A stretch of 64,000 nucleotides of DNA from Maribacter sp. (GCF_049667165.1 NZ_JBATHS010000028.1:20591-84590), one strand, 5' to 3'; shown: positions 32,561 through 60,577, counted from the stretch's first letter. Notes: a model not told the origin generated them from the sequence alone. Translations and numbers: made by a program.

Positions 32561-34072
32561 TTATTCCTGAAATTGATCAAATTCTGGATTGACTTTGGCA
32601 TTTTTAAAGATCGGTCGGTTTTTCCATAATTCATATGTAGCTTTAAGTTGAGTTGCCGATTCAGGATATTGCCCTTTGTCATCAGTCTCTTTAATCCAAG
32701 TTTCCAATACGTTTCTATGTTCCTGAAGAACGACTTCAAAACTTGAATCACTGGCAAGGTTGCTCATTTGGTGTGGGTCAGTTTCCAGGTCATAGAATTC
32801 CTCCTCTGGGCGAATTCCGAACCAATGCTCCTCTTGATATTCTGTGAGTTTGTCTTCTTCGTATAGGTCTTTCATATCCGTTACTATGGGTCTATTATCC
32901 CGATAACCGGCCTGCAGCATTGGTCGATTCGGGTAATAATTTCTTATATAGCGGAACTCTTCTGAACGAACAGTACGAATACGGTCAATTGTATAATCAC
33001 ACCTATCTCTAGCTCCTATGACGAATTTCGGAGCTCTATAATCTTTGGCGAACAAATTCTGCCCGTCAAGATATTCCGGTAATTCAGCTCCGGCCAAGGC
33101 TAAAGTCGTGGCACTAACATCAAGAAGCGATACAAGTTCATCACGGACTTTTCCCGCTTCAAGTGATGCATGATTTCCTTTAATGATCAAGGGCACTTGC
33201 ATACCACCTTCATAACAAAATTGCTTGTGACGCAAGGAGGTATTGCTTCCGTGGTCGGAAAAGAAAAAAATAATCGTGTTTTCCAATTCGCCATCCGCTT
33301 TCAATTGAGCCAGAATCTTTTCTAGTTGTACATCCGATCCACGATTGGCATTGTAATGTGTAGTCCATGCCGCTCGTTGCGATGGAATATTCGGAAAATA
33401 GGGGGGCAGCGGAACATCATTAATTTCCAGCTTTTCTCCCTCCCGAACATATTTGGCATCTGCTTTTCCTCCCATGATTTGAACTTGACCAAACCAAGGT
33501 TGATCCTTATCAGGACGATTGCTCCATACAGCTTGGGTCAATGACATGAAGTTCTTAGCCCGGTTGCCTTGCCAACCATTCATGCCTGTTTTATACTCGT
33601 CAGAATTTCCCACATCATAAAGTACATTACGGTCGTAGTGAAAATTGTAATCGTCTTTACCATTGTTGAAGGTAAAATAGCCAGCAGCTTTCATGAGTTC
33701 GGGTATGGTCTTGACATATTTAGGAAGATGGATTCGAAGCGCTTCAGGAACAATTTCACCATCGACGGTTCGGCTTGAACGGTGTTGATGCGTACCAGTG
33801 GAAGTTTGCATTACACCGGTTATCAATGCAGATCTACTTGCTGAACAGACGGGAGCCGTGGAATAGGCATGTTTAAAAAGGACACCTTCTGAAGCCAATT
33901 GATCGATGATTGGCGTGTGCCCCTGGTTTATTGAATCGCCATAGCAGCCCATAAATGGAGACAAGTCTTCGGCTATTATCCATAGGATATTTGGTCGTAT
34001 TACCTCTTTTGAATCGAGTTCAAAACATGAGAGTAAAGTCAATAGCGCAATAAGTATTGCCGTTGTTTTCAT
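32561..34072 (-). CDS. S1 sulfatase, lipoprotein
   Basis: 503 aa with a lipobox (TLLSC), the metal site WIIAEDLS and the FGly motif CSASRSALITG (the Cys-x-Ala-x-Arg variant). Confidence 0.9.
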   Translation of the reverse strand: MKTTAILIALLTLLSCFELDSKEVIRPNILWIIAEDLSPFMGCYGDSINQGHTPIIDQLASEGVLFKHAYSTAPVCSASRSALITGVMQTSTGTHQHRSSRTVDGEIVPEALRIHLPKYVKTIPELMKAAGYFTFNNGKDDYNFHYDRNVLYDVGNSDEYKTGMNGWQGNRAKNFMSLTQAVWSNRPDKDQPWFGQVQIMGGKADAKYVREGEKLEINDVPLPPYFPNIPSQRAAWTTHYNANRGSDVQLEKILAQLKADGELENTIIFFFSDHGSNTSLRHKQFCYEGGMQVPLIIKGNHASLEAGKVRDELVSLLDVSATTLALAGAELPEYLDGQNLFAKDYRAPKFVIGARDRCDYTIDRIRTVRSEEFRYIRNYYPNRPMLQAGYRDNRPIVTDMKDLYEEDKLTEYQEEHWFGIRPEEEFYDLETDPHQMSNLASDSSFEVVLQEHRNVLETWIKETDDKGQYPESATQLKATYELWKNRPIFKNAKVNPEFDQFQE

Positions 34073-34172: not shown

Positions 34173-35291
34173 CTATTGTCCTTCCTCTATATATTGCTTT
34201 GCAAGATAGGCGTAGGTTTCACTATCGGAATTCGCAAATGTTTCAATGTTATTTAGAATTTCGCGTGATAATTCATGCTTTGGCGATAAATGGCTGAAAA
34301 AGCTATTAAGTTGATTTTTACTCATTGCCGATAACTTACCAGATAGGATGTCAACAACAAAAGGGGGTGCTGTATCCAAATTTTTCAGTAATAAACTACG
34401 GCTGCCAACATCTATTTTATCGAAAGCTTGCCAGAAGGGTAGTTGCAAGTTCGGGGTTGCTTTAAAATGTGTCATAAAGCTTTTCGCAACGACACTGCGA
34501 ACCAATGGGATGGCCGTTTTGAATATTTCCGAAATTTGAACATGATGTTGCAGATATAATTCCTGATCCATTTTTTCCAATGCAAAAAGCTGGTATTCCG
34601 GGTTATTGCTATAGAGCATATCGATTATTATATTCTCGTTTAATACAGCAAGGGTCCTAGCTTTTAATTTTTCACGAATATCCCCATGTGCTAAATGCCA
34701 AGCGGTGTAACAAGAATAAAGTGCACCAGGTACAATAGATTCTTTTACTTGGGTAATGGTCGCCCCCGAAACGGCATCCACGCCATTAACAGTCCGCATT
34801 TTAGGTTGCTCTACCAAACGGTCAATACTTCTTCTTCCCAGGATACTTTTATCATCGGTCAAAAGTTCATGTAGTTTTTGATAATCTTCTTCCAGAAATA
34901 TATCATGGTCGTATTTGGTCAAGGGTAAATCGGGATAGCGGTCAAAACCGGCATATTCCCCTAAAAGTGTCCAATACAATTTTAGATTCATTAATTTGCA
35001 TTCTCCATCAGCGCATACGGGGGTCGAAATAGCAGCGGTATATAGAACGGGTTCTTTCCTTTGATTCAGTAAAACATCGATACCCTGTTTTCCCACAGAA
35101 TCTACTTCGATGAAAAACTCCGTTTTTTGGGATGTCAGTTTTGTGCCAACGTTCCATTGCAATACATAAAATTCAGGCGCTTTATCCAAAAAATCACTCA
35201 TAGGAAGCTTGTTGGGAACCTCCTTTAATTCACTGGTGGGTCTTCCTGAAAAGAGCAGTATAAGTAGAAGTATGGAAAAAGAGGTTTTCAT
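34173..35291 (-). CDS. Secreted FMN_bind-like protein (SGAT flavinylation motif) with a helical-repeat C-terminal half; function unknown
   Basis: 372 aa with a signal peptide. VDAVSGATITQ matches the [S/T]GA[T/S] FMN-attachment site of NqrC/RnfG-type FMN_bind domains. It is a paralog of 54182-55300. Its start overlaps the stop of the upstream FAD-oxidoreductase (ATGA). Confidence 0.5.
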   Translation of the reverse strand: MKTSFSILLLILLFSGRPTSELKEVPNKLPMSDFLDKAPEFYVLQWNVGTKLTSQKTEFFIEVDSVGKQGIDVLLNQRKEPVLYTAAISTPVCADGECKLMNLKLYWTLLGEYAGFDRYPDLPLTKYDHDIFLEEDYQKLHELLTDDKSILGRRSIDRLVEQPKMRTVNGVDAVSGATITQVKESIVPGALYSCYTAWHLAHGDIREKLKARTLAVLNENIIIDMLYSNNPEYQLFALEKMDQELYLQHHVQISEIFKTAIPLVRSVVAKSFMTHFKATPNLQLPFWQAFDKIDVGSRSLLLKNLDTAPPFVVDILSGKLSAMSKNQLNSFFSHLSPKHELSREILNNIETFANSDSETYAYLAKQYIEEGQ

Positions 35292-37084
35292 TGTTTTGAA
35301 TCTGGGATCTTTTCAAATTTCTGCTCTTCTATCAACGCTAAATATTCATCTAAATAACCGGTATAAATCTCCCTCGGATTAACATCGTACTTTTTGCAAA
35401 GGGCAGCGGCAAAACCCACTGCAGCGCCCATCTGGCCCGTGGTTCGCATAACCCTTGGTCCGCCCAACCCTGCGTGGGAACAGCTGAAATTTCTTCCGGC
35501 CATAAAAAGATTGGAAATATTCTTGGAGTACAAACTTCGATACGGAATATAATATTCAGGAGTATTGTAAAAAAGTGCCTCCGATATAAAATCAGGGTTG
35601 TTCTCATTTTCAAGTACCGTCTGATAGTGTATATCGACGGCCCTTATTTCAATCACCACCCCATCGCGAAATTTGCGCCCTTCCTTTGCATCGTTAAAGG
35701 TGAAAACATGGTCGCCAATTAATCTTCGTGATTCCCTTTTCCCTACTAAATAGGATACCCATTCAAGTTCGCGATGGGCATTTTCAGGCTGTTTTTTGGC
35801 ATTTGCGAACGAACCATAAATAGCCCGTAGCATGTGGTCGCGAATTTCTTCGGCGTCATCGATTTGGTTCAAATCCGGACTGCTGAACTCCCATTGCCAT
35901 TCCCCGGCTACTTTTGCATAATCCTTAGCCACAGGCATGGCCCACGGTACCTCTGGAAAAGCCTGTTGGGATGATGTTTCTTTTGAACCCCATAATACCG
36001 ATGAGCCCATGACGGCATTGTCGGGTTCTTTCGGACTCCATAATTCACCATGCTCTTCCCATTCCTCTCTGTATGTATCCACACTTTCACGGCCATATGA
36101 AAACTCGGCACCTGCCCAATATCCTATCCAACCGTCACCCGTGGAATCTACAAATCGCGGGGCTGTAAACCGAATGCGATCTCCTGTGGATGTATGTCTT
36201 GCGTCCACATATTGAATGATACTGTCCTTGGCTAGGGCATCATAGGCCCGGTGATTCAGGAATAGGTCGATATTGCTATAATTTTTAACGTTATCATCCC
36301 GTTTTTTCTGGTCGAGTTTTGCCTCATCACTCCCATTGGGGTAGTGCTCGGTATCTATTTTTTTAAGAATGCGTTCAAAGTTCCCATAGATACCCAGCGT
36401 ATGAACCCTGATCTCTTCACTGGCATTCCCACCAAGTACAGGGCGGTCATGAATCAATGCGATTTTTAGGCCTTCCTCCGCTGCGGCTATAGCCGCGGCA
36501 CAACCGGCGATTCCCCCACCTACAACCACTAAATCATATGATTTCGTGATTGGTGGCGCATTGGGTTCGGACTTGATGGTCTTTCGCCATGATGCCAGCT
36601 TTTTAGAAGAAGATGGTGGTTCTTCATTTTTTGTGGAAAAATAAATAGCATCAACCCTGCCATTGAATCCAGTCAAATCGATGAGTTCCAGTTGAATTTC
36701 ATGTGCTGTCACATTGATGTTGTCGACATATTCCCATCCCCAACCAGAGCGGAGACCTAACGTCTTGTCAATCAATTGTGAATTTACTTTTAGTTGAAAT
36801 CGCCCTGGTGCCTCCCAATTGCCAGGGACCCAGTTCTTGGTTCGTACCCAAACGTGATACTTACCAACGGTTTCGAATTTCACTTTGGTCATGGCATTTT
36901 CAACAGGCACCCCCATGCCATGCGCCAAAAGATAGGGGGAACCCATCTGTTGTTCAAATTGAGGGTCGATTACCCAACCTCCCGGATTGTCAAAGTTTTC
37001 AGCCTCGATCAATAGTTCCTGGGCCAAAAGGGCATTAAAGAAGAAGATGAAAAAAAGCGGTATAATTTTTCTAAATAGATTCAT
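35288..37084 (-). CDS. Exported FAD-dependent oxidoreductase (PF12831-like) with an N-terminal beta-sandwich domain
   Basis: The likely start is MNLFRKIIPLFFIFFFNALLAQ at 37084 (Sec-type signal). An N-terminal ~170-aa domain is followed by the dinucleotide fold YDLVVVGGGIAGCAAAIAAAEEG and DRPVLGGNAS. It is a homolog of 55304-57220. Confidence 0.75.
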   Translation of the reverse strand: MNLFRKIIPLFFIFFFNALLAQELLIEAENFDNPGGWVIDPQFEQQMGSPYLLAHGMGVPVENAMTKVKFETVGKYHVWVRTKNWVPGNWEAPGRFQLKVNSQLIDKTLGLRSGWGWEYVDNINVTAHEIQLELIDLTGFNGRVDAIYFSTKNEEPPSSSKKLASWRKTIKSEPNAPPITKSYDLVVVGGGIAGCAAAIAAAEEGLKIALIHDRPVLGGNASEEIRVHTLGIYGNFERILKKIDTEHYPNGSDEAKLDQKKRDDNVKNYSNIDLFLNHRAYDALAKDSIIQYVDARHTSTGDRIRFTAPRFVDSTGDGWIGYWAGAEFSYGRESVDTYREEWEEHGELWSPKEPDNAVMGSSVLWGSKETSSQQAFPEVPWAMPVAKDYAKVAGEWQWEFSSPDLNQIDDAEEIRDHMLRAIYGSFANAKKQPENAHRELEWVSYLVGKRESRRLIGDHVFTFNDAKEGRKFRDGVVIEIRAVDIHYQTVLENENNPDFISEALFYNTPEYYIPYRSLYSKNISNLFMAGRNFSCSHAGLGGPRVMRTTGQMGAAVGFAAALCKKYDVNPREIYTGYLDEYLALIEEQKFEKIPDSKQ

Positions 37085-37094
37085 CCGTATTATT

Positions 37095-38780
37095 CTAATC
37101 ATTCCAATGTTCATCGATTACTTTTTGAATATGGGGGTATTTGGCATCGGTCTCGTTCAAATTCTCCCGCATTTGTTCCATTTGGGTTTTTAAATCAGCG
37201 ATGACCGAAGCATAGGCAGGGTCTTTATAGACATTGTTCATTTCTTTTGGGTCTTTGCTTAAATCATAGAATTCCCATGCGGGGGGCGTATGCGTGATAA
37301 AATCATTGCCCCAACTCTCCTTATTCCATGTGGCATTAGGGTCATCGGTATCTACCCAATATTTTCCGTAGAAGAAGATTAGTTTATAGTCTTTGGTGCG
37401 AATGCCAAAGTGGGCCGGATTTTGGTGTTTATGTGCCAAATGCATCCAATACCGATAATAGGTTGCCTGTTGCCAATTTTCAGGTTCTTCGCCAGTTTCC
37501 AAAATGGTCTTAAAGCTTTTTCCCTGCATGTAATCCGGTGCTTTACCTCCAGCCAATTCTATCAACGTAGGGGCAAAATCGGTATTATTGATTATGGCAT
37601 CGGTTCTTGTACCAGGTTTGATATTTTCAGGATATCTGACAAAGAAAGGCATCCGCATGGACTCATCGTACATCCATCGTTTATCAATATAATCATGTTC
37701 CCCCAACATAAAACCTTGATCCCCGGTATAGACAATGATGGTATTTTCCATTAATCCCTCTTCTTCTAAATAATCCAACAGGCGTTTTACATTGTCATCG
37801 ACTCCTTTTACGCAACGCAGGTATTTTTTCAAATAATCCTGATACACCTTACTTGTGTATTCCCGCTCAGCTGGGTTCATTTCCCATTTCACATATTCTT
37901 CAGGTCTAATATCCTTGGCTTCCCGGTATTTTTTATAAATCGTGGTGTCATTCCAATAGATATTCATGGCTTGGTTACGAATTAAATTTCGACGTGAAAC
38001 TGATGAACCAATAATCCGGGTTAATGAATCGTTTTTTCCTCTTGTCCCAATTGAACCATTATTAGCATTATCATATAAACTTTCCGGTTCTGGAATAAAT
38101 GTATCTGCCAAATAACTGTCATATCTTGGGGCATTTTCGAAATCATCATGGGGTGCCTTAAAGTGATGCATCAAAAAGAAAGGTTTATTCGGGTCTCTTT
38201 TGTTCTTCAGATAATCCAAGGTGATGTCCGTAATCATGTCTGATGAATGTCCTTTGGTCTGGACCAAATTTTCGGGCCAGGGCTTATCACCACGAACCCT
38301 AAAATCAGGATCGAAATATTTCCCTTGAACCGGAAGTACTTTATAATAATCAAAGGCAGCAGGTTCATCATGCAAATGCCATTTACCGACTATGGCAGTC
38401 TGGTAGCCCAGTTTTTTCATTTCAAGTGGCAAGTATTGATTTTCAGGGGCGAGAGAACCTTCCAAATCTATGACCCCATTTGTTTGCGCTCGTTGACCTG
38501 TTAATATTGCAGCCCTACTTGGCACGCAAATGGAATTATTGACAAAACAATTCTGAAAAATGATTCCCTCATTGGCAAGTTTGTCCAGCGTTGGGGTAGG
38601 GTCGAGGCTTGCCAAACGGCTGCCATAAATACCAAAGCCTTGGGTCGTATGGTCATCCGCCATGATATAGATGATATTTGGTTTTTGAACCACGGTGGCA
38701 CTTTTTTCATTGCAGGAAAATAGGGGTCCTGTTAGTATCAAAACAAGCAGCATTCTTTTTATATACATCATCATATTCAT
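37095..38780 (-). CDS. S1 sulfatase, lipoprotein
   Basis: About 561 aa from the Met at 38780 (the alternative at 38798 would overlap the upstream gene). It has a lipobox (PLFSC), the metal site YIMADDHT and the FGly motif CVPSRAAILTGQ. Confidence 0.9.
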   Translation of the reverse strand: MNMMMYIKRMLLVLILTGPLFSCNEKSATVVQKPNIIYIMADDHTTQGFGIYGSRLASLDPTPTLDKLANEGIIFQNCFVNNSICVPSRAAILTGQRAQTNGVIDLEGSLAPENQYLPLEMKKLGYQTAIVGKWHLHDEPAAFDYYKVLPVQGKYFDPDFRVRGDKPWPENLVQTKGHSSDMITDITLDYLKNKRDPNKPFFLMHHFKAPHDDFENAPRYDSYLADTFIPEPESLYDNANNGSIGTRGKNDSLTRIIGSSVSRRNLIRNQAMNIYWNDTTIYKKYREAKDIRPEEYVKWEMNPAEREYTSKVYQDYLKKYLRCVKGVDDNVKRLLDYLEEEGLMENTIIVYTGDQGFMLGEHDYIDKRWMYDESMRMPFFVRYPENIKPGTRTDAIINNTDFAPTLIELAGGKAPDYMQGKSFKTILETGEEPENWQQATYYRYWMHLAHKHQNPAHFGIRTKDYKLIFFYGKYWVDTDDPNATWNKESWGNDFITHTPPAWEFYDLSKDPKEMNNVYKDPAYASVIADLKTQMEQMRENLNETDAKYPHIQKVIDEHWND

Positions 38781-38784
38781 TATT

Positions 38785-40299
38785 TTATGGAGTGGCATTT
38801 AATTGGGGTTTGATCTGACTTATATCCAAAGGATCATTTAATTCCTTTTGCAACTGGATCAATTCGATGAACATGGCATTAATTCTGTCTTTGTATTCCG
38901 GTTTTTTCGCTAGATCATCCATTTCTTCTGGGTCGTTGGTCAAATCGAAGAGCAATATCTTATTCAGTTTAGGGTAGATCAATAACTTAAATCCGTCCTT
39001 TCTTATCATTCGCTGTGTACTCACGTAACCCCCATAGATGGCATCGTAATGACTGGTGCTTCGTTCGCCATTGAGAATATCCAAGAAACTGTTGAAATAA
39101 ACATAATCCGGCTTTTCAATCCCCGCTAGTTCTAGACTAGTGGCCATAGCATCCTGTAAATAAATATCCGTATCGATTTTTTTGCCCTTCTCAATTTTAG
39201 GCCCGACAATCGTGAATGGTGGGCGGATACTATGGTCAAACAGGGATTGCTTTCCCAACAGCCCATGGCGCCCCATGGCCAAACCATGGTCCGCGGTGAA
39301 AATGATATAGGTATTATCCATTTTGCCGCTAGCTTCCAATTCATTCAGAATTGCCCCAATTTGATCATCAAGATGGGTGATCAATGCATAATATTCCTGA
39401 ATATGTTTCTTTGTGGCATATTCCGTTCTAGGGAATGGTGCCAAAGCCTCATCCCTTAAGTCAGGTCCATTACCTATACTATCCTTAAACGGGTACATGG
39501 GCATCCAACTTTTGGGCAAACTGATATTTTCCAACGGATATTTATCCAGGTATTCTTGAGGTGCTTGTCTTGGGTCATGGGGGGCATTGAAGGCCAGGTA
39601 CATAAAGAAAGGGGTATCCTTGGTTTTGGCTTTAGTGATGAAATCGATTGCATCGTCTTTAAGGACTTCGCTCCAATGTTTGCCTCCTTCCCAATAACCT
39701 CCGAACTTCTTATCCGTTGGGGTCCACGATGTATCATTCTCATTTAATGGACGATTATACCCTACCGCTTTTATATCTGATTCTGATTTGCCATTTTTTA
39801 GCATTTCATTTATCATTGGAATTGATCCACCGTGGCTCCATGAATCTCTTGGCATGCCTGGCCTCACATGGGTAACATGCTGAAAAACGGAATCTGCCGG
39901 GGCATCTACATGCCATTTACCGGTCATGTAGGTTTCATAACCTGCCCCCTCCATTAATTTTCCCCAAGTTTTGTCCATTTCTTGCCCTCCTATCCAATTT
40001 TGTCTGAATTGGTCAGTCTCCCAAACACTGCGTCCTGAAATGAGCATGGCCCTTGATGCTTGGCATACGGCACCGTTCCATGCACCCATATTATAAGCAT
40101 GGGTGAATGTTGTTCCAGTAGCGACCAAGCGATCGATATTTGGAGTCTGGATCTCTGTATTGCCCACTGCATTAACAGCTGTATAGGTCATATCATCCGC
40201 AAAAATGAAAACAACATTAGGTTTAGCCGTTTCTGATGCCTCTTCTGTTTTGCAATTCAACACCAATGCGATAATGACTAGGGCAAATAGTTTTTTCAT
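38785..40299 (-). CDS. S1 sulfatase, lipoprotein
   Basis: 504 aa with a lipobox (LVLNC), the metal site FIFADDMT and the FGly motif CQASRAMLISGR (Ala variant). Confidence 0.9.
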   Translation of the reverse strand: MKKLFALVIIALVLNCKTEEASETAKPNVVFIFADDMTYTAVNAVGNTEIQTPNIDRLVATGTTFTHAYNMGAWNGAVCQASRAMLISGRSVWETDQFRQNWIGGQEMDKTWGKLMEGAGYETYMTGKWHVDAPADSVFQHVTHVRPGMPRDSWSHGGSIPMINEMLKNGKSESDIKAVGYNRPLNENDTSWTPTDKKFGGYWEGGKHWSEVLKDDAIDFITKAKTKDTPFFMYLAFNAPHDPRQAPQEYLDKYPLENISLPKSWMPMYPFKDSIGNGPDLRDEALAPFPRTEYATKKHIQEYYALITHLDDQIGAILNELEASGKMDNTYIIFTADHGLAMGRHGLLGKQSLFDHSIRPPFTIVGPKIEKGKKIDTDIYLQDAMATSLELAGIEKPDYVYFNSFLDILNGERSTSHYDAIYGGYVSTQRMIRKDGFKLLIYPKLNKILLFDLTNDPEEMDDLAKKPEYKDRINAMFIELIQLQKELNDPLDISQIKPQLNATP

Positions 40300-48076: not shown

Positions 48077-48077
48077 T

Positions 48078-49352
48078 ATGATCTGGATACTTGTTGTCGT
48101 CTTTGTAATTTGTTTGTTGTTACGATTTCCCATAGCATTTTCTTTAGGCCTCTCCTGTCTTGCTTATTTACTTATGAAAGGGATTCCGTTGATCATAATC
48201 CCAATGAAAATGTATTCTGGAATCGATGTGTTCGTGCTTTTGAGTATACCCGGATTTATTTTAGCGGGAAATTTAATGAACCGTGGGGGGTTGACGGAAA
48301 AAATCATTTCTTTTTGCAATCATCTCACAGGTCACGTTCGAGGAGGTTTGGCGTTGGCCAATATTGGGGCCTCCATGTTGTTTGCTGGTATTTCGGGTAC
48401 TGCAATTTCCGATACGGCAAGCATTGGTTCTGTCATGATACCTGCGATGAAAAAAGAAGGGTACGACGCTGACTTTTCATGTGCCATAACTGCTGCATCT
48501 TCTACTGTGGGGCCCATAATCCCTCCAAGTGTTCCAATGATCATTGCCGCTACCCTGAGTGGACTTTCTGTAGGTAGATTGTTTCTGGCAGGGGCGATTC
48601 CTGGTTTTTTATTGGGATTTGGATTGATGTTCGTGGCGTATTATATTTCTGTAAAAAAGAATTATCCAACTTTTCCAAAAAGCAATATTCGACAAATTCT
48701 AATAGGATTTTTAGATACATTTTGGTCCCTACTCATGACCTTTATCATTTTATTTGGGATAATAGGGGGTATCTTCACTCCGACTGAAGCCTCTATAATT
48801 GCAGTATTTTATGCCATGCTGATCGGTGTTTTCGTTTATAGGAAGTTGAACTTCAAAAACATTATGGTCATCGTTTTGGATTCGATGAAAACATCGGCTT
48901 CCCTAATGGTCTTGATCGGTTTTGCCAACCTTTTTGGTTGGATCCTCATTACAGAACAATTGCCCCAAATCATTTCGAGCGAAATACTCAATTTTTCGGA
49001 AAACAAGTATGTGGTTCTACTTTTGATCAATCTATTATTGATATTGGTTGGCACCTTTATGGAAACCATCGCCGCTCTCTTGATCTTATTTCCTATTCTT
49101 TTGAAAGTAGCCATTGGTGTAGACGTAGACCCCATTCACTTTGCAGTAATTGCACTACTCAACCTAATGATAGGGTTAACCACCCCACCCCTTGGGGTTT
49201 GCCTTTTTGTTTCGGCAAGTATTGGCAAGGTATCAATAGGTGCGGTAAGCAAGGCAGGAATACCATTTCTTATCGTGAGCCTAATCGTTTTGACCATCGT
49301 CACCTTATTCCCTGAAGTGTCACTTTTTCTCCCAAATCTTTTTATGGATTAA
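48078..49352 (+). CDS. TRAP transporter large permease subunit (DctM family)
   Basis: 424 aa, polytopic, DctM-like in size and pattern (LSIPGFILAGNLMNRGG...). Confidence 0.85.
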   Translation: MIWILVVVFVICLLLRFPIAFSLGLSCLAYLLMKGIPLIIIPMKMYSGIDVFVLLSIPGFILAGNLMNRGGLTEKIISFCNHLTGHVRGGLALANIGASMLFAGISGTAISDTASIGSVMIPAMKKEGYDADFSCAITAASSTVGPIIPPSVPMIIAATLSGLSVGRLFLAGAIPGFLLGFGLMFVAYYISVKKNYPTFPKSNIRQILIGFLDTFWSLLMTFIILFGIIGGIFTPTEASIIAVFYAMLIGVFVYRKLNFKNIMVIVLDSMKTSASLMVLIGFANLFGWILITEQLPQIISSEILNFSENKYVVLLLINLLLILVGTFMETIAALLILFPILLKVAIGVDVDPIHFAVIALLNLMIGLTTPPLGVCLFVSASIGKVSIGAVSKAGIPFLIVSLIVLTIVTLFPEVSLFLPNLFMD

Positions 49353-49421: not shown

Positions 49422-52661
<3,240 letters not shown>

Positions 52662-52690: not shown

Positions 52691-54154
52691 TTATTCAATC
52701 TTAAATGTCTCCTCAAATTGAGCCATGTTCTTTTCCTTCCAAATCGTGCTTAATTCTTCAGGATCGAACCATTGGGGTTCAGTATGGGTTTTGCTCCATT
52801 TTTCAGCTTCAAAAACCATTTTAGCGAGCTGCTCGGGATAATTAGCACTCAAATCAGTCTGTTCGCCCAAATCTTCTTCGATATTATAGAGTTTCCAGTT
52901 ATTTTGATTGGTCTTTAACGCTTTCCATTGATCTTGTCTAACACCTACATCGCTGTATCCTTCCCGATGTCTAAGTACATAGATCATTTCACCTTTTCTA
53001 GGATTTTGTCCTTGGCTGAAAGTCGGCCAAATATCCTTACCATCCAATTCTTTTCCTGCTGGTAATTCAGCCTGTGCCAATTTGGCGAATGTTGGGTAGA
53101 AATCAAGGGCCGAAATGGGATAGGGAAACGTTTTTCCACTTGCAACCTTCCCTGGCCAATGAAAGAACATGGGTACTCGATACCCACCCTCACAGGCACT
53201 TCCTTTACCTTCCCTAAGGGGGAAATTCGTTGCGCCTTTGGTGAGTTTACCGCCGTTATCGCTTAAAAATACGATCAGGGTGTTTTCATATTCCCCTTTT
53301 TCCTTAAGGGCTGTAACAACTTCGCCAACCCCTCTATCTACGGCATATACCATGGCGGCATAAGTGCGGCGTTTTTCATCTTTAATATGATCGAATTTTT
53401 TCAGGTCTTCTGCCTTGGCCTCTAAAGGAACGTGAGGTGCATTGTAGGCCAAATAAAGAAAAAATGGATTTTCTTTTTTACTTGCGCTTCGTACAAATTC
53501 GACCGCCTTATGAGAAAGTTCATCCGTAAGATATTCTGATGGGTTTTCCACAATTTCACCATTTAGTTCCAAAGGTTTTAGATAATCGAAAATAACCTCT
53601 TTCCCCTGTGCCTTTTGTTCATTGTAGGCAGCGGTATATTGCTCGGGGAAATAGTTATGTCCTCCCCCTAGAAATCCATAGAAATAATCGAAGCCTCTTT
53701 TGTTGGGATGGTAATCGGGCTCTGGCCCTAAATGCCATTTGCCAATGGCGCCTGTGTAATACCCTGCCTCTTGCAGTACCTTGCTAAAAAAGGTTTCTTT
53801 CAATGAAATGCCTTTACCAACAGTGACCTCACTATTTGCGGGTAGATTGAATTGCGAGCCGAACGTATGGGGGTACTTTCCTGTCATCAAGGCTGCCCTA
53901 CTCGGACCACAGAATGGATGCGCCACATAACCTGAGGTCATGATAGTACCGTTAAAGGCTAATTTGTCGATTTCGGGGGTCGGAATGTCTTTGGCACCAT
54001 TGAACCCAACGTCTGAATACCCAAGGTCGTCGCACATAATGACCAAAATATTGGGCCGTTGATCTTCTACTTTTGCGGTTTGTAGGTTTTTATCTTGATT
54101 TTTACATGAAATCGAAAACGCAATAACAAACAGTAGTAATTGAATGAATTTCAT
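52691..54154 (-). CDS. S1 sulfatase, lipoprotein
   Basis: 487 aa with a lipobox (FSISC), the metal site VIMCDDLGYSD and the FGly motif CGPSRAALMTGK. Confidence 0.9.
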   Translation of the reverse strand: MKFIQLLLFVIAFSISCKNQDKNLQTAKVEDQRPNILVIMCDDLGYSDVGFNGAKDIPTPEIDKLAFNGTIMTSGYVAHPFCGPSRAALMTGKYPHTFGSQFNLPANSEVTVGKGISLKETFFSKVLQEAGYYTGAIGKWHLGPEPDYHPNKRGFDYFYGFLGGGHNYFPEQYTAAYNEQKAQGKEVIFDYLKPLELNGEIVENPSEYLTDELSHKAVEFVRSASKKENPFFLYLAYNAPHVPLEAKAEDLKKFDHIKDEKRRTYAAMVYAVDRGVGEVVTALKEKGEYENTLIVFLSDNGGKLTKGATNFPLREGKGSACEGGYRVPMFFHWPGKVASGKTFPYPISALDFYPTFAKLAQAELPAGKELDGKDIWPTFSQGQNPRKGEMIYVLRHREGYSDVGVRQDQWKALKTNQNNWKLYNIEEDLGEQTDLSANYPEQLAKMVFEAEKWSKTHTEPQWFDPEELSTIWKEKNMAQFEETFKIE

Positions 54155-54181: not shown

Positions 54182-55300
54182 TTAAAGTCTATCTTGATTT
54201 TGATTGTAGAATTCCTGAATGTTATTCTTCTGCACATTCGATAGTTTTTTATACGCCAAAAACCAATATGCCTTTCTGGCGATTATAAAACTACTGTTGT
54301 CCAATAACAATGTAACACGATCTAAAATAGTTGGGTCATTTGATTTTGCGTATTCCAAAATGTTCAAAATCAAATCTATTTCCTGAAAAGATTTCAGATT
54401 GGCAATATCAATGGTCAATGTATTATAAAAATCCGGATTGCCGATTTTCTCTACACTTGCTATGGAATTCAAAAAAAGAATCCTATTCGCATCACTCCCT
54501 TTGCTATAGAGTTGTTTCATCGTTTCAATATAAAGCTCCCGTGGGGCATTTTCAACATATTCAATGGCAAGGCGATTTACTTCTTTAGATGCTTTTGGGG
54601 CGATTTTCACTAGGGCATCAAGTAGGGGTTGGGTGTATGCGTTACGGCGAATCAATTCATGAAGCACAAATTTCTGATGCTTCGGATTCGTAGCACCTAA
54701 ACCAGTAATGATTTGCTGCGTCGTTAGAAAACTGCCCGATATTCGCTGCACTTCCTGAACGATCTCACCATTTGCCCAGTGCCAAAGCGTAAAGCAGGTC
54801 CATGCTGCCCCAACAACGGTTTCCCCATTTTTCAATACGGTCTCCGTGGCGCCCGATACAGCATCTACTTGACCCTCTCCTACGACCTTTTCGTGGGTTA
54901 TTTCATAGTATGAAATGTCTTTATAGGGCGAATTCCTGTCCATTAATATTTTCTGCAGCAATTGATAATCTTCCTCATTAAAAGGCTCTCCTTCTCCTTT
55001 CTCTAGGCGAACACCTTTATCCAATTCATAGCTGACATATTCCCCGTAGGTATTCCAAAAAAGACGTACTGGAACAATTTTACAAAGATGGTCGATACAA
55101 ATAACCGATTCCACTTCAAGATAAAATTCCGACGGGTTGTTTTTTCTTCTGATTTCTTTCAATACAAAATCCTTCGAAGTTCCTTCCTCAAAAGCAGGAT
55201 GGCTCACCACCACCTTATGGTCTACCACCTCTTCTTGGGCAACATTGAACGCCAAAAAGACAACAATAAAAAGGATTATGTGTTTTAAGAAAATCACCAT
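54182..55300 (-). CDS. Secreted FMN_bind-like protein (SGAT motif) with a helical-repeat C-terminal half; paralog of 34173-35291
   Basis: 372 aa with a signal peptide and VDAVSGATETV. It shares the CxDxxC (ICIDHLC) and C..WH (CFTLWHWANG) features with the paralog. It starts 4 nt after the stop of the FAD-oxidoreductase. Confidence 0.5.
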   Translation of the reverse strand: MVIFLKHIILFIVVFLAFNVAQEEVVDHKVVVSHPAFEEGTSKDFVLKEIRRKNNPSEFYLEVESVICIDHLCKIVPVRLFWNTYGEYVSYELDKGVRLEKGEGEPFNEEDYQLLQKILMDRNSPYKDISYYEITHEKVVGEGQVDAVSGATETVLKNGETVVGAAWTCFTLWHWANGEIVQEVQRISGSFLTTQQIITGLGATNPKHQKFVLHELIRRNAYTQPLLDALVKIAPKASKEVNRLAIEYVENAPRELYIETMKQLYSKGSDANRILFLNSIASVEKIGNPDFYNTLTIDIANLKSFQEIDLILNILEYAKSNDPTILDRVTLLLDNSSFIIARKAYWFLAYKKLSNVQKNNIQEFYNQNQDRL

Positions 55301-55303
55301 ACA

Positions 55304-57220
55304 TCAATAACATCTAATTTCAAATAACTTGACATGGCCTGCGCCGTAGGTTTCGGTCATTTTTAGTCTGATTGCGGTAATCTTGGTACTATCAAATTTA
55401 AATTTGATCAAGCGGGTTCTATTGCTTTCGATTGTTCCAAGATTGGTCCATTTTCCATTCGCCCGTCCTTCTAATATTATAGATTTCAGCATTTCTTTAG
55501 GGACACCATTGCTGTATAACTCATCATTTCTGCTATCCTTGCGCATCATGATGTTTCGTTTCACATTGGTATCGCATTTCAGTTCAACGGCGGATAATGC
55601 TATTGGTGACTCCCATTCCATTTGAAGTTCGGCCGGTAATCCGTCTGATTGCCAATGGTTGATTTTCCCATCAATATCCCTTGAGATGCCATTGGTTAAA
55701 AACATGGCATCTCCCGATGCCGTCGTCGAGCCAAAAATCAAACTTGCTTTTTTGGCCAAATCCAAAGGGTCGTTCGCAGGTCTTTTCGGAATAAAAACAT
55801 CATCCCTTAATAATCGTTCCTGCAACTCTTTAATATGTTTTTGGGCTACTTCCCGGGGAAGTATATTTTTCCTGTTGCAAATAGTAGCTGCCGTCCCTAC
55901 GGCCTGACCCTGCAAGGCACATGTGGCCATAATCCGGCTTGAAGACAATGCGATATGTGTTTGACTTACATTACGGCCTGCGAACATTAAATTGGGTACA
56001 TTTTTGGAGTACAGACTTCGAAAGGGAAATTGATATACCTGTTCAAAATGATGATGGAAATAACTTGGTGGTTCCGATATGTCATCGATACCTCCTGGAT
56101 TGTGTTCATCCAAAGACCAACCTCCAAAAGCTACGGCATCTTCAAAATGCCTGTATTCTGTCATATCCCTTTCAGAGACAATGTAATCCCCGATAAAACG
56201 TCGTGATTCCCTTCTGCCGGGTAGGGAACCTACCCAATCCAACGCTAAATTTTCAGCTTCCGGAAAATTCCCAGAGTTTTTAATATAGTCCCAAACACCA
56301 TGTAAATACCCCATTAATTTATGTCTGTTCACCTCAAAATCCCCGATGATATCGTCATCACTCCCAATTTCGATCCACCAAATTCCATCTTGAAATCCAG
56401 CAAATTTTCGTCTTTTGCTTGCCCCTTCATGAGTATACTTTATGGCATAGGAAGGGGGGGTGTATTTCATGGGTCTTCCCATATCTTTCGAGGACATTAA
56501 GAGCGTAGCGCCCATTTGCCAACCATCCGGCGCATCAGGGGCGTAGGTTTCGTTGAATTCCGATTTTCCTTCCCGTCCTGTTCTGTATTCCGCACCTGCC
56601 GTTGCGGCCAATAAACCATCCCCAGAGCAATCTATGAATATGGGTGCATTGATGGTATATAAAATTTCTGTTGTTCCTTGCCAACATAATGCCGATTTAA
56701 TCGTATCCCCTTGCATTATAGCTTCAATAGCTTGGGTATTCAGCATCAAGGTTAAATTCGGCTCCCTGACTACAAAATCATATAGAACATGGTCAAAAAC
56801 CGGATACGATTCCTGTTCATTTTCGAATCGATTATGTAAAAGTATTTCCTCAATTATACCCGTTTCCCGTTCGGCTTTGCCTTTTATATCATTTACGCCA
56901 TTTAAATGTACCCGCATTTCACTCGAGGCATTTCCGCCTAAAACAGGTCTGTCTTGGACCAAAACCGTTTTTGACCCATTTCTTGCCGCTGCAACGGCCG
57001 CACAAATGCCCGCTGCTCCGCCGCCTATAACGGCCACATCATAAACCATAGTTTTCTTTCTTGAAGGCACGCCCGTTTTCCCAGTCCCCAAATGATACCA
57101 TTTATCATTTTCACGATCTGCCAATCCCTCACAATTATCTTGGGTAATACGGGTAATAGGAATAATACTGGCCCCAACCGCTGCGTTAGCCGCTTTTTTG
57201 AAAAATTTTCTTCTTTCCAT
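55304..57220 (-). CDS. Tat-exported FAD-dependent oxidoreductase (PF12831-like) with a C-terminal discoidin/F5-8-like domain
   Basis: The likely start is MERRKFFKKAANAAVGASI at 57220 (twin-arginine signal). It has the dinucleotide fold YDVAVIGGGAAGICAAVAAARNG and DRPVLGGNAS, plus a C-terminal ~170-aa beta-sandwich ending in FEIRCY. Confidence 0.75.
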   Translation of the reverse strand: MERRKFFKKAANAAVGASIIPITRITQDNCEGLADRENDKWYHLGTGKTGVPSRKKTMVYDVAVIGGGAAGICAAVAAARNGSKTVLVQDRPVLGGNASSEMRVHLNGVNDIKGKAERETGIIEEILLHNRFENEQESYPVFDHVLYDFVVREPNLTLMLNTQAIEAIMQGDTIKSALCWQGTTEILYTINAPIFIDCSGDGLLAATAGAEYRTGREGKSEFNETYAPDAPDGWQMGATLLMSSKDMGRPMKYTPPSYAIKYTHEGASKRRKFAGFQDGIWWIEIGSDDDIIGDFEVNRHKLMGYLHGVWDYIKNSGNFPEAENLALDWVGSLPGRRESRRFIGDYIVSERDMTEYRHFEDAVAFGGWSLDEHNPGGIDDISEPPSYFHHHFEQVYQFPFRSLYSKNVPNLMFAGRNVSQTHIALSSSRIMATCALQGQAVGTAATICNRKNILPREVAQKHIKELQERLLRDDVFIPKRPANDPLDLAKKASLIFGSTTASGDAMFLTNGISRDIDGKINHWQSDGLPAELQMEWESPIALSAVELKCDTNVKRNIMMRKDSRNDELYSNGVPKEMLKSIILEGRANGKWTNLGTIESNRTRLIKFKFDSTKITAIRLKMTETYGAGHVKLFEIRCY

Positions 57221-57237
57221 GCCGTTGCTATTTGTAC

Positions 57238-58890
57238 TTAAGAACCAACTTTTGGTCCGACTTTGTTTTTTGGCAAATTCCCCTTCCAACCTTTGTCGAA
57301 TTGAGCCATTAATTCGGCCACCAATTCGGGATTATCACCTGCAATATTGTTGGTTTCGGTAGGGTCTACTGAATGATCATATAACTCTAAAAAAAGAGGT
57401 TCTTTTTTTAGATCTGCCCGGTCTTTCCAAACTATAAAACGATATCGCTCCGTTCTCATAGCGTATCCCATGAGCGTATTTTCGAACAATTCGCGGTCCC
57501 ACTTTTCTTTTTGTTGATCAATAATACGGGCTTCAACTTCCTCAATCAAGGGGCCGAAAAAGGTCTCACGCATTGCTGGTCTTAACGGATATGCACCCCA
57601 TTCACGCAAGGCGGGTGTGGGGAATTGACTAAAAACGGCCGATTTCCAATCCAAGTTTGGATTATTGAGCAAGGGTTTAAAGCTATAACCTTCAACATGA
57701 TTTGGCACTTCAATACCCGCGAGATCACAAAGGGTTGGGTATATATCGACCAACTCAACCAGAGCATTGGTTGTACTGCCCTGATTTTTTTCAGGAATAT
57801 CCGGTGTCCATATCATCATGGGAACACGGGTTGCAATTTCGTAATTGGTCGCTTTCCCCCAAATACCCATTTCACCTAGATGCCAACCATGATCGCCCCA
57901 AAGTACAATAATGGTATTGTCCCTAATTCCGGCATCAGCCAACGCATCGATCATTCTTCCTAGTTGTGCATCGACATAGCTTACACATGCTAAATAGGCA
58001 TGCTTTAAGGTTGTTGAAAGTTCTTTATCCAAATCCCCGAATTTTGGAATTCCGCTTCTTACCCGTAATTCAAAAGAAGGATGCAGTCCCATTGCCGCAC
58101 CATTGATCGGCGCTTTGGTTTGGGCTGTTGATTTAATTTTGTTTTCATCGTATAAATCCCAATATTTTTTGGGTGCTACCCAATTTAAATGCGGTTTATT
58201 AAAACCTAAAGCCAGAAAAAAAGGCTTGTCTTCTTTCACCATTTCTTTCATGGTCTCAATGGCCAAATCGGTGTTCAGGCCATCAGCATATGTATTGTCC
58301 GGAACATCGGCGGATTCAAAGGCCGGACCCATCGCCAGACCGTATTTGGCGACGTCTCCATATTTAGCGAACATTTCTTTACGTGTCTCCTCCCTTATTC
58401 TTTGATTTTCCGGAAGCGCAAACGGAACAGGTTTTTTATCCGTTTTTAGCTGCGGTCTATTCCAAGAAATTTCATCTTCATCTCCATGATGAAAGATTTT
58501 CCCATAATAAACGGTTTGATAACCCTTTGAAGCAAACTGTTGGGCTATTGTGTTTACCTCAGGTAGTTTTTCCCTAAAGCGTATATAATTGTGAATTACA
58601 CCACTGGTTGAAGGACGAACGCCCGTCATTAAACTAGCCCTTGATGGTCCACAGATGGCTTGTTGACAAAAGGCGTTATTGAATAATAAACCTTGATTTG
58701 CAAGTTTGTCCATATTTGGACTTATCGCAATATCAGAGCCATAACATCCCAACTCTGGACGTAAATCGTCAATGGCAATAAAAAGAATATTTGGCTTTGG
58801 TTTTGTTTGGGACGAACCCCCTTCTTCCCCTTCAGATTTGCATCCGAGGATAATCGATAAAACACATAGAAGAATACATAGCCTACCCAT
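57238..58890 (-). CDS. S1 sulfatase (iduronate-2-sulfatase-like), lipoprotein
   Basis: The internal Met at 58890 gives MGRLCILLCVLSIILGC (lipobox); the tracker N-terminal extension would overlap the upstream gene. It has the metal site FIAIDDLRPELG and the FGly motif CGPSRASLMTG. Confidence 0.85.
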   Translation of the reverse strand: MGRLCILLCVLSIILGCKSEGEEGGSSQTKPKPNILFIAIDDLRPELGCYGSDIAISPNMDKLANQGLLFNNAFCQQAICGPSRASLMTGVRPSTSGVIHNYIRFREKLPEVNTIAQQFASKGYQTVYYGKIFHHGDEDEISWNRPQLKTDKKPVPFALPENQRIREETRKEMFAKYGDVAKYGLAMGPAFESADVPDNTYADGLNTDLAIETMKEMVKEDKPFFLALGFNKPHLNWVAPKKYWDLYDENKIKSTAQTKAPINGAAMGLHPSFELRVRSGIPKFGDLDKELSTTLKHAYLACVSYVDAQLGRMIDALADAGIRDNTIIVLWGDHGWHLGEMGIWGKATNYEIATRVPMMIWTPDIPEKNQGSTTNALVELVDIYPTLCDLAGIEVPNHVEGYSFKPLLNNPNLDWKSAVFSQFPTPALREWGAYPLRPAMRETFFGPLIEEVEARIIDQQKEKWDRELFENTLMGYAMRTERYRFIVWKDRADLKKEPLFLELYDHSVDPTETNNIAGDNPELVAELMAQFDKGWKGNLPKNKVGPKVGS

Positions 58891-58897
58891 GGGTATC

Positions 58898-60577
58898 TTA
58901 ATTTTTTTGTTTTGCCCTATTGCCTTTCCAACCTTTATTGAATTGGACAAGAAGGGTATTGACCAATTTCGGATTTTGACCGGCAATGTTCACCGTTTCA
59001 TTCGGGTCTGTCTCATGGTCGAACAATTCAATAAAAATAGGTTCGCTTGCAGGTTGGGTATAATCTTTCCAGACAATTAATCGATACTGCTCCGTTCGCA
59101 TGGCATATCCCATAAGATTGTTTTCGAAGAGATTACGATCCCATTTTTCTTTTTGCTGTTCAATGATGCGTGCCTCAACTTCTTCGATCAATGGTCCAAA
59201 ATACGTTTCGCGCATTCCTTGGGAAAGTGGGTTGGCGGCCCACTCCCTTAAAGCAGGGGTTGGGAACTGGCTGAATGCGGCATCTTTCCATTCAAGCTCG
59301 GGATTGGTAAGCAACGGCACAAAACTTTGGCCTTCCAGATGGCCAGGTAACGAAATTCCCGTCAATTCGCATAAGGTCGGATAAATGTCTACCAGTTCAA
59401 CCAAGGCATTTGTCTTTTTGCCACGGTTTTCTTTAAGCATGTCGGGCGTCCAGATCATCATCGGGACCCTGGTTGAAATCTCATAATTAGTGGCCTTGCC
59501 CCAAATACCCATTTCGCCCAAATGCCATCCGTGATCGCTCCATACCACGATTATAGTATTGTCCCGAATGCCGGCTTCATCAAGGGCGGCAATCATTTTC
59601 CCGATTTGGGCATCTACATAACTTACACAGGCCAAATAAGCATGTTTTAATGTTTTGGCCAACTCATCATCAATTGGCCCTTTTTTAGGAATGCCACTTC
59701 TAACCCGAAGTTCAAAGGAAGGGTGCAGCCCCATTTCCGCCCCATTGATGGGGGCTGTCGTTTGTGTCGTAAGTTTAATACTGTCCCTGTTATATAGATC
59801 CCAATACTTCTTAGGGGCCAACCAATCCAAATGGGGTTTTTTCATGCCCAATCCCAGAAAAAAGGGTTTGTCCGGATTTTTTTCAAGCATGTCCTTTAAA
59901 GTGGCAATGGCCAATTCTGTATTATACCCATCTTCATAGATATAGTCAGGTACATCCGCACTTTCATAGGCAGGGCCTTTTCCCAAACCCCTTTTTGCAG
60001 CATCGGCGCCATATTTCGCGATCATTTCGGCCTTGTTCTCCCGATACATTTCCTGATTTTCGGGAAGGGCAAAACCTCCTGGAGTTTGTGTAGGTTTAAT
60101 TTTCATTTTATCCAGTGCCGGTGCCCTGCTCCAAGAGAGTTCGCCATCACCAAACTCGGTATTGTGGTAAATTTTACCTGTATACGCCGTTTCATAGCCA
60201 TTCGCCCAAAAATGTTGGGGTAGTGTAATGATATCGGGATTAGCATCCCGGAAATAGGTATAGTTTTCTATTACGCCAATCGTTTCTGGCCGGGCCCCGG
60301 TCATTAGACTGGCCCTCGAAGGACTACAAATGGCCTGTTGGCAGTAAGCTCTTTCAAATTGGAGTCCGTCTGAGGCCAATCGGTCCAAATTAGGGGTCAC
60401 CGCAATATCAGAGCCATAGGAACCCAGTTCAGGACGTAGATCATCTATGGCAATGAATAGGATATTTGGTTTGTTCTTTATGACTTCCTTTTTGTCTTCT
60501 TTAGGCTTACAACTACATACCGATACAAGAAGCATTAGAATACCTATGCTTTTTCTTAAACTTATTTTCTTATACAT
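58898..60577 (-). CDS. S1 sulfatase (iduronate-2-sulfatase-like), tandem paralog
   Basis: 559 aa with a lipobox-like SVCSC, the metal site FIAIDDLRPELG and the FGly motif CSPSRASLMTG. It is collinear with 57238-58890 along its whole length. Confidence 0.9.
   Translation of the reverse strand: MYKKISLRKSIGILMLLVSVCSCKPKEDKKEVIKNKPNILFIAIDDLRPELGSYGSDIAVTPNLDRLASDGLQFERAYCQQAICSPSRASLMTGARPETIGVIENYTYFRDANPDIITLPQHFWANGYETAYTGKIYHNTEFGDGELSWSRAPALDKMKIKPTQTPGGFALPENQEMYRENKAEMIAKYGADAAKRGLGKGPAYESADVPDYIYEDGYNTELAIATLKDMLEKNPDKPFFLGLGMKKPHLDWLAPKKYWDLYNRDSIKLTTQTTAPINGAEMGLHPSFELRVRSGIPKKGPIDDELAKTLKHAYLACVSYVDAQIGKMIAALDEAGIRDNTIIVVWSDHGWHLGEMGIWGKATNYEISTRVPMMIWTPDMLKENRGKKTNALVELVDIYPTLCELTGISLPGHLEGQSFVPLLTNPELEWKDAAFSQFPTPALREWAANPLSQGMRETYFGPLIEEVEARIIEQQKEKWDRNLFENNLMGYAMRTEQYRLIVWKDYTQPASEPIFIELFDHETDPNETVNIAGQNPKLVNTLLVQFNKGWKGNRAKQKN

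Follow-up and report, generated by a model that had tools for sequence, protein, structure and literature searches.

A stretch of 64,000 nucleotides (nt) from Maribacter sp. (GCF_049667165.1 NZ_JBATHS010000028.1:20591-84590; "the window" below) carries two copies of a two-gene unit, each encoding a flavin adenine dinucleotide (FAD)-dependent oxidoreductase and a partner protein of an unannotated family. The reading favoured here, with moderate confidence, is that each copy is a split two-flavin periplasmic redox enzyme within an operon of red-algal galactan sulfatases, in which one subunit would carry FAD and the other covalently bound flavin mononucleotide (FMN). There is good support for the pair as a genuine periplasmic module of sulfated-galactan operons whose two genes are inherited together. 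An earlier note on this DNA described the unit; it missed that the SGAT sequence of the partner is the flavinylation motif of ApbE, which is the key to a mechanism.

Copy 2 consists of oxidoreductase 2 (55304..57220; 638 amino acids (aa), predicted Tat export) and partner 2 (54182..55300; 372 aa). Copy 1, 20 kilobases (kb) away, consists of oxidoreductase 1 (35288..37114; 608 aa, Sec-type signal, accessory domain at the N-terminus) and partner 1 (34173..35291), a 372-aa paralogue of partner 2. Both modules, the domains and motifs mapped within them and the sulfatase genes that flank them lie on the minus strand. The open frame of oxidoreductase 2 spans 55304..57289(-); its ATG at 57220 yields a protein that starts MERRKFFKK and ends FEIRCY, and this start is supported by homologues, which begin at the same M[KE]RR. 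In pairwise BLAST, the two oxidoreductases are 35% identical over 423 aa (E 3e-53), and the two partners 32% over 168 aa (E 5e-25), only their N-terminal halves being aligned. By these alignments, which the earlier note had proposed as a check, the two units are true diverged duplicates with similarity far above chance. The note's central observation, namely that the unit recurs between sulfatases, is borne out with exact coordinates, and Pfam places the flanking genes in the S1 sulfatases. As it also held, these are not close paralogues between the copies (22-37% identity).

A clue to mechanism lies in the partner. Partner 2 contains the sequence DAVSGAT (54845..54865, residues 146-152), an ApbE-type flavinylation motif with predicted FMN attachment at Thr152; partner 1 has DAVSGAT at residues 172-178. 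The pattern D-x-x-[S/T]-G-A-[S/T] has been shown experimentally to be the target of ApbE in FMN-binding domains, DUF2271 and DUF3570, and extracytosolic fumarate-reductase-like enzymes often occur with an FMN-binding domain, either fused or at most two genes away (PMC8238504). Across 187 full-length members of the partner family, the attachment position is always Thr (179) or Ser (8), the Asp at -6 (D146) is kept in 182, and the full pattern in 150. When only members with less than about 42% identity are compared, D146 and T152 are among just eight invariant positions. Judged by this conservation, the partner is probably flavinylated at Thr152.

A second conserved element is a CxxxxC pair, CIDHLC in partner 2 (55082..55099, residues 68-73) and CADGEC in partner 1 (residues 93-98), located in a modelled β-hairpin (strands 55-69 and 72-82). 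It is near-invariant, with C68 in 186 of the 187 members and C73 in all of them; a disulfide and a metal ligand are candidate roles for it. A third cysteine lies in the stretch CFTLWHWANG (residues 169-178; CYTAWHLAHG in partner 1). All these motifs of partner 2 had been listed correctly in the earlier note, which concluded that SGAT and three cysteines are under functional constraint; this holds for the motif and the CxxxxC pair across the 187 members, but less so for the third cysteine, which is Ser or Thr in 28 of them.

The family is large. A profile search of 1.84 billion representatives gave 920 cluster representatives at E <= 1e-3 and 539 at E <= 1e-30, nearly all 350-420 residues long and matched over their full length. 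Sixty-five word-index matches to partner 2 are all annotated "hypothetical" and have no Pfam domain. Neither partner belongs to a Pfam or NCBIfam family at threshold, PDB sequence searches with the single sequence and with an N-domain profile gave nothing meaningful, and an exact-sequence look-up of partner 1 returned no record. In the AlphaFold (AF2) model of partner 2 (mean predicted local distance difference test, pLDDT, 86.7 at full length and 88.1 for the N-domain alone), an N-terminal helix is followed by a five-stranded β-region with two helices, a low-confidence loop, and a further helix that leads into an all-α solenoid. The first helix (modelled for residues 2-18) coincides with a Sec signal or membrane anchor (55244..55300; hydropathy 3.04), and a hydrophobic N-terminus of this kind is present in 160 of the 187 members; the predicted topology would thus place the motif outside the cytosol. 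The N-terminal β/α domain (54746..55243, residues 20-185) is a candidate divergent FMN_bind-like domain, and the C-terminal half (54185..54745, residues 186-372) is an armadillo/HEAT-like all-α domain, for which Foldseek retrieved designed armadillo proteins and importin-α (E 4e-3).

Since a Foldseek search with the full-length partner returned armadillo-repeat matches only, the N-domain was modelled separately. Against 350,542 PDB chains, its top match, over 160 columns and below significance, was RnfG (7zc6_G). An hhalign comparison of the partner with a small RnfG/RsxG alignment paired the core hairpin over 27 columns (E 0.0015), collinear with the motif; the RnfG/RsxG profile was thin, as a homologue search with E. 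coli RsxG gave only sequences of >82% identity, and diversity was added from PDB alignments. A single-sequence comparison with E. coli RsxG likewise has hairpin and motif in register. Among Pfam families, only FMN_bind recurs in diverse members; its matches, in 9 of 21, all fall on the motif and all stay below threshold (best E 0.025). Weak as they are, these signals agree with one another, and a divergent FMN_bind fold is plausible for the N-domain.

The larger proteins are both PF12831 FAD-dependent oxidoreductases, with predicted FAD binding and redox activity. Against a cut-off of 27 bits, oxidoreductase 2 scores 301.6 (E 1.5e-89, profile positions 1-416 of 416) and oxidoreductase 1 scores 215.5 (E 2.2e-63, positions 1-410 of 416). 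Both have a GxGxxG motif, GGGAAG at residues 66-71 of oxidoreductase 2 and GGGIAG at residues 199-204 of oxidoreductase 1. In an alignment of ten diverse relatives, numbered as in oxidoreductase 2, G66, G68 and G71 are invariant, as are RESRR at residues 337-341 and, towards the C-terminus, the block G-R-N-x-S-x-T-H...R. Identity to oxidoreductase 2 is 67-100% among its top 120 database homologues. The best hit in a PDB profile search with the family was the FAD domain of the Shewanella flavocytochrome c3 fumarate reductase (E 4.6e-14). All PDB profile matches are confined to N-terminal FAD segments (positions 41-100 and, weakly, 144-200), and the same search gave no relative for the substrate domain. 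Similarly, NCBIfam yields N-terminal Rossmann matches only for both proteins, and PF00890 does not match over its full length but only at residues 61-98 of oxidoreductase 2 (profile positions 1-38 of 414).

The two enzymes differ in their accessory domains and in their export signals. The Pfam core occupies residues 61-470 in oxidoreductase 2 (55811..57040) and 194-586 in oxidoreductase 1; the additional domain is C-terminal in the former (55307..55810, residues 471-638; conserved in orthologues) and N-terminal in the latter (residues ~33-190). This swap of position agrees with the earlier note. Its description of the domain as discoidin-like found no support, as neither an F5/8 type C nor a carbohydrate-binding module match appeared in Pfam or PDB sequence searches: for oxidoreductase 2 there was no Pfam family at E <= 10, for oxidoreductase 1 only Golvesin_C at E 0.09, and such PDB hits as appeared had E values of 0.24 or worse.

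Oxidoreductase 2 begins with a predicted twin-arginine translocation (Tat) signal peptide, MERRKFFKKAANAAVGASIIPITRITQ (57140..57220), with RRKFF at residues 3-7; M-E-R-R-K-F-F-K-K fits the Tat consensus (S/T)-R-R-x-F-L-K. Its hydrophobic region (h-region), ANAAVGASIIPI, has a hydropathy of only 1.55, compared with 2.5-3.0 for the N-termini of the other three proteins (2.50 in oxidoreductase 1, 3.04 and 2.63 in the partners), and the RR motif is kept in 118 of the 120 closest homologues. Because of the RR start, the weakly hydrophobic stretch and this conservation, the Tat signal claimed for copy 2 is accepted as a prediction, together with a Sec-type signal for copy 1, whose N-terminus is strongly hydrophobic; an 81%-identical orthologue from Flagellimonas algicola (locus L007) has a Sec-type signal as well. 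A lipobox-like Cys follows the signal in 72 of the 118 Tat-bearing homologues, which may be Tat-exported lipoproteins; oxidoreductase 2 has no clean lipobox. Some genomes encode a third PF12831 subtype near the pair, 614 aa long and ~63% identical to oxidoreductase 2 (L037 11076-12917, L049 11059-12903, L021 2610-4454); L049 has three oxidoreductase genes and one partner.

Enzyme and partner travel together well beyond Maribacter. Neighbourhoods were counted in 80 loci (L005-L084) from species-representative genomes with a partner homologue; no canonical FMN_bind protein was found among their open reading frames. In ~64 of the 80, the partner lies immediately downstream, and on the same strand, of a gene for a Tat-type PF12831 protein 56-83% identical to oxidoreductase 2, mostly with gaps of -15 to +160 nt; the partner was also present in all five metagenome loci found via the oxidoreductase alone. 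The linked pair spans Bacteroidota, Gammaproteobacteria and some Planctomycetota. It is conserved at 80% identity across flavobacterial genera and at ~70% in Gammaproteobacteria, among which Catenovulum has the pair with a partner of 30% identity (E 7e-54). Flagellimonas algicola contains both module types, 5 kb apart. Distance matrices of enzyme and partner are correlated (r = 0.71, Mantel p = 0.001), and where a genome has two modules, the partners cluster by the subtype of their enzyme and not by genome. The earlier note's statement that only the redox pair is conserved holds within the window, but across genomes copy 2 is part of a larger cassette: 32 of 64 loci have an orthologue of the S1_7-like sulfatase immediately upstream of the oxidoreductase, as do 5 of 5 loci found through the oxidoreductase.

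Some loci show further variation. In the Gammaproteobacteria Catenovulum (L003 10001-16912) and Paraglaciecola (L093 10001-16881), the pair is followed by genes for an extracytoplasmic function (ECF) sigma factor and a FecR-type anti-sigma factor with a laminin-G domain, and then by an S1_7-like sulfatase; in L093 a frameshift may have split the partner into open reading frames (ORFs) of 282 and 112 aa. What looks like a sulfatase-oxidoreductase fusion of 1112 aa (L008 6588-9926) is not real but results from a stretch of Ns in the assembly.

The sulfatases around the two modules provide the substrate context. Copy 2 is preceded by sulfatase A (57238..58890), immediately upstream of oxidoreductase 2, and its tandem paralogue sulfatase B (58898..60577), both Pfam Sulfatase and S1_7-like; the interval 57238-60577 therefore holds two genes, not one, with 66% identity between their products. 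An S1_19-like sulfatase (52691..54154) lies immediately downstream of partner 2. The stop-to-start gaps are 17 nt between sulfatase A and oxidoreductase 2, 3 nt between oxidoreductase 2 and partner 2, and 27 nt between partner 2 and the downstream sulfatase, so that the genes of this run are almost certainly co-transcribed. Genes for a GH2 enzyme (60658-63213, minus strand) and, after the S1_19-like sulfatase, for a LacZ-type GH2 (49422-52661, minus strand) belong to the same closely packed run. Copy 1 forms a separate minus-strand operon in the order sulfatase, oxidoreductase, partner, sulfatase. Its S1_11-like sulfatase (37095..38798) overlaps the start of oxidoreductase 1 by 20 nt, oxidoreductase 1 and partner 1 overlap by 4 nt, and a further sulfatase (32561..34072; Pfam Sulfatase E 6.5e-40) lies downstream of partner 1. 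Additional sulfatases and a hybrid two-component regulator are encoded upstream of this operon.

The S1_19-like sulfatase matches the iota-carrageenan sulfatase 6B0J (E 4.7e-183) and also the S1-19 entries 9HH2-4. Sulfatase A matches 6HHM (E 5.6e-94) and iduronate-2-sulfatase (E 9e-67), and the tandem pair is of the S1_7/iduronate-2-sulfatase type. Copy 2 is thus accompanied by both a cgsA-type (S1_19) and a cgsB-type (S1_7) sulfatase, as in a carrageenan cassette. The S1_7-like orthologues found directly upstream of the oxidoreductase elsewhere are 65-80% identical to the tandem sulfatases. In Zobellia, the cgsB genes ZGAL_3146 and ZGAL_181 are 65% identical, and their counterparts are adjacent in several other Bacteroidetes loci (PMC5698469); the 66% between sulfatases A and B mirrors this value. 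The sulfatase beside copy 1 (37095-38798) matches the S1_11 exo-L-galactose-6-sulfatase 7LHA of the porphyran pathway (E 1.7e-188). No GH127 or GH129 anhydrogalactosidase and no dauA-D gene was recognised among the annotated ORFs of the window; the oxidoreductase orthologue in Wenyingzhuangia fucanilytica is adjoined by GH127 and GH16. With these neighbours, the most likely substrate of copy 2 would be a sugar derived from carrageenan at about the stage of 2-O-desulfation, and copy 1 would probably serve an agar- or porphyran-type substrate.

Two transporters were noted in these surroundings. A complete tripartite ATP-independent periplasmic (TRAP) transporter (DctP, DctQ, DctM; 46545-49352, plus strand) is encoded between the two sulfatase operons; since TRAP systems import carboxylates, a sugar acid may form outside the cytoplasm. 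A gene for a CstA-family transporter (Pfam E 3.9e-60; a pyruvate/peptide carrier family), which does not occur in the window, lies directly after the partner in 18 of the 80 loci (L010, L014, L018, L055, L060 and L062 among them).

A working scheme for the split two-flavin enzyme can be drawn from these features. The catalytic subunit of copy 2 would fold with FAD in the cytoplasm and leave via Tat; that of copy 1 would be exported by Sec and necessarily be loaded with FAD in the periplasm. The partner, translated from the message of the oxidoreductase, would be Sec-exported and either anchored or released in the periplasm, where the resident ApbE would link FMN by a covalent bond to Thr152 (Thr178 in copy 1) of the divergent RnfG/NqrC-like domain. 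The armadillo-like half may dock the partner on the oxidoreductase or on another protein, and electrons would then move among bound sugar, FAD and tethered FMN, and onwards to, or in from, a carrier encoded elsewhere.

A more specific version is speculative and, taken as a whole, improbable. It holds that the partners form a new class of ApbE substrates, and that both modules act in the periplasm as dehydrogenases coupled to the respiratory chain, turning red-algal anhydro sugars, or oligosaccharides of these, into sugar acids by oxidation, copy 2 in the carrageenan (D-series) and copy 1 in the agar/porphyran (L-series) branch. The acids would enter the cell by the TRAP system or by a CstA-type transporter. 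If true, pathways described as complete would gain an oxidative branch in the periplasm, and it would become clear why unrelated oxidoreductases (AA3, ADH/OXR, FR/SR) stand beside cgsB in different degraders.

A number of observations weigh against a split two-flavin enzyme. At the level of the partner, the G or the A of the full motif is replaced in 20% of members, and the motif loop is modelled at pLDDT <50. The RnfG match has E 0.95 and template modelling (TM) scores of 0.39/0.35, the hhalign probability for RnfG/RsxG is only 17%, and PF04205 (FMN_bind) scores 14.4 and 14.3 bits on the two partners against a cut-off of 22, at profile positions 51-65 only. At the level of the pair, the partner has evolved at nearly double the rate of the enzyme (mean distance 0.64 vs 0.36). 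It occurs without an adjacent oxidoreductase in ~12 loci (L053, L061, L068, L073, L078, L080, L083 and L009 among them), mostly from Kiritimatiellia, Victivallales, Verrucomicrobiota and Pirellulaceae of the Planctomycetota, and W. fucanilytica has an 80%-identical oxidoreductase without an adjacent partner. Finally, no apbE-like gene recurs within ±10 kb in the 80 loci, a count made without an ApbE-model search, and neither does a cytochrome or a known flavinylation-linked membrane electron carrier. Nor was apbE recognised among the ORFs of the window, again in a search that did not use ApbE's own model. Marine Bacteroidota generally encode Na+-NQR and ApbE.

Several of these points would suit a partner that carries no flavin at all, a minority possibility. 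The partner would then act as an armadillo scaffold, an anchor or a chaperone and tether the oxidoreductase or the sulfatases at the inner membrane, with the SGAT loop having a structural or binding role. Half of the protein is indeed an ARM/HEAT-like solenoid, and folds of this type usually serve to bind peptides or proteins; FMN_bind stays below threshold and the fold match is weak; apbE is not nearby; and some genomes have the partner without an adjacent oxidoreductase, in one case among six sulfatases (L009). However, a purely structural loop would not be expected to keep both a Ser/Thr in all 187 members and the precise ApbE-motif spacing of D(-6), [S/T](-3), G and A, and it is FMN_bind that alone recurs as a family in the members and RnfG that emerges as top structural match. 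A different departure, and an unlikely one, concerns the oxidoreductase, whose reaction may be redox-neutral overall: a sulfated or anhydro sugar would undergo cleavage or rearrangement by way of a transient oxidation or a reduced flavin, while the partner would maintain the redox state of the flavin in a compartment without NAD(P)H. NAD-dependent GH4/GH109 enzymes and UDP-galactopyranose mutase are analogues of such chemistry. The lack of a PDB sequence match for the substrate domain, the position of the enzyme among hydrolytic operon steps and the existence of close homologues without an adjacent partner are compatible with it, and the invariant Arg/His clusters (RESRR, GRN.S.TH) would suit an anionic sugar; yet positive evidence is lacking, and the FAD domain resembles those of true oxidoreductases.

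Least probable, to the point of being very doubtful, is a role in sulfatase maturation, in which the pair would convert the active-site Cys of neighbouring sulfatases to formylglycine in the periplasm by means of flavin, and the armadillo half would hold the unfolded CxPxR peptide. The pair is strictly tied to sulfatase-rich organisms and operons, the neighbouring sulfatases are all of the Cys-type, and armadillo repeats bind extended peptides. Such an activity has no known precedent, however, and the window itself encodes a formylglycine-generating enzyme with a lipoprotein-like signal (6333-7487, minus strand; Pfam FGE-sulfatase E 8e-79), so that a canonical maturase is available near its sulfatases. 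Moreover, genomes have several diverged modules, each with accessory domains and tied to one sulfatase subfamily, a pattern more in keeping with substrate-specific catabolism than with a general maturase.

Among known systems, the split two-flavin enzyme is closest to the class of the Shewanella urocanate reductase UrdA and Listeria FrdA (PMC8238504). Like these, it would be an extracytosolic FAD enzyme, with an FAD domain nearest to those of flavocytochrome c3 and UrdA, combined with an [S/T]GA[S/T] element that is either fused or encoded in a neighbouring gene. Unlike them, its catalytic protein belongs to PF12831, with a PF00890 match limited to the first ~40 residues; its putative flavin carrier is a separate gene product with sub-threshold FMN_bind and an armadillo-like fusion; it has predicted Tat export and resides in glycan/sulfatase operons instead of respiratory clusters; and no linked apbE or membrane electron-transfer genes were found in the 80 loci. 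In RnfG/RsxG/NqrC, as in the partner, a membrane helix at the N-terminus precedes a periplasmic domain in which D-x-x-[S/T]-G-A-T lies close to the C-terminal helix. The similarity to these proteins is non-significant, though, no Rnf or Nqr subunits are encoded nearby, and the CxxxxC hairpin, the WTCFTLWHW helix and the 190-residue armadillo-like extension have no equivalent in them.

The pair has been seen before in carrageenan loci. In Pseudoalteromonas atlantica T6c (Patl_0891-0893) and strain PLSV, genes denoted CGSB (S1_7), FR/SR and UNK2 are consecutive (PMC5698469, Supplementary Data 10), and in Aquimarina RZW4-3-2 an FR/SR gene stands beside CGSB; FR/SR and UNK2 are given no function and are not discussed (PMC5698469). 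The Aquimarina contig is our locus L064, where the FR/SR enzyme shares 80% identity with oxidoreductase 2 and the partner comes next, and where a 69%-identical orthologue of sulfatase A flanks the listed gene, the neighbour of which is classed as CGSB. The pair has therefore been catalogued previously without a proposed function, and it probably corresponds to FR/SR and UNK2 as orthologues, the assignment of UNK2 being based on gene order. Other redox genes occupy comparable positions: in Zobellia galactanivorans, ZGAL_183 (AA3 GMC) lies beside cgsB2 and is strongly induced by kappa-carrageenan (log2 fold change 6.6), iota-carrageenan (6.2) and 3,6-anhydro-D-galactose (5.4), and a Cellulophaga carrageenan locus has ADH and OXR genes beside cgsB (PMC5698469). 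These are, like oxidoreductase 2, redox genes next to an S1_7 sulfatase, but they come from unrelated families. The analogy suggests that different lineages may fill one periplasmic oxidation step with different enzymes, i.e. by non-orthologous displacement. Literature on PF12831 with sulfatases, on FAD oxidoreductases in utilisation loci, on xanthan lyase annotations and on seaweed glycans offered no function for the pair. Taken singly, its components are of familiar kinds; what the flavinylation surveys and the seaweed-glycan literature searched do not describe is the family of the partner, its architecture, the pairing with PF12831 and the glycan-locus setting.

The remainder of the window, taken with the two modules, looks like a composite region for the use of red-algal galactans. 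At 13-3986 (minus strand) there are genes for a CobW-like GTPase, two URO-D/MtaA-like methyltransferases, one of them with a thioredoxin-like tail, and a protein that resembles a B12-binding protein by eye only; GalT/GalK-like genes, also identified by eye, adjoin this set at 4148-6323. The set looks like a corrinoid-dependent O-demethylase, which could demethylate 6-O-methyl-galactose without oxygen; the mechanism of anaerobic 6-O-methyl-galactose demethylation is described as still undiscovered (PMC12316285). The segment 8738-24889 contains, by eye, three GH29-like fucosidases/L-galactosidases, two GH117-like genes (for the one at 19255-20532, a Pfam scan gave a weak GH43-clan match only) and an L-fucose/L-galactose-type set of dehydrogenase, lactonase and permease. 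It also includes an ORF that appears GH16-like by eye, yet has no family in a Pfam scan, and a truncated GH28-like ORF that Pfam supports.

The breakdown of carrageenan and agar has been treated as solved, as a hydrolytic process followed by cytoplasmic steps; here, a conserved redox pair stands amid the desulfation genes with no assigned role. The pair is a candidate for a missing activity in the enzymatic processing of sulfated seaweed galactans, and Thr152, the CxxxxC pair and the Tat-exported enzyme are the practical targets. If the partner is flavinylated, ~900 sequence clusters would be added to the known substrates of ApbE, a family that earlier surveys probably missed because it falls below the Pfam FMN_bind threshold and is not encoded beside apbE. 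Extracytosolic flavin-based electron transfer would then be linked to the use of polysaccharides.

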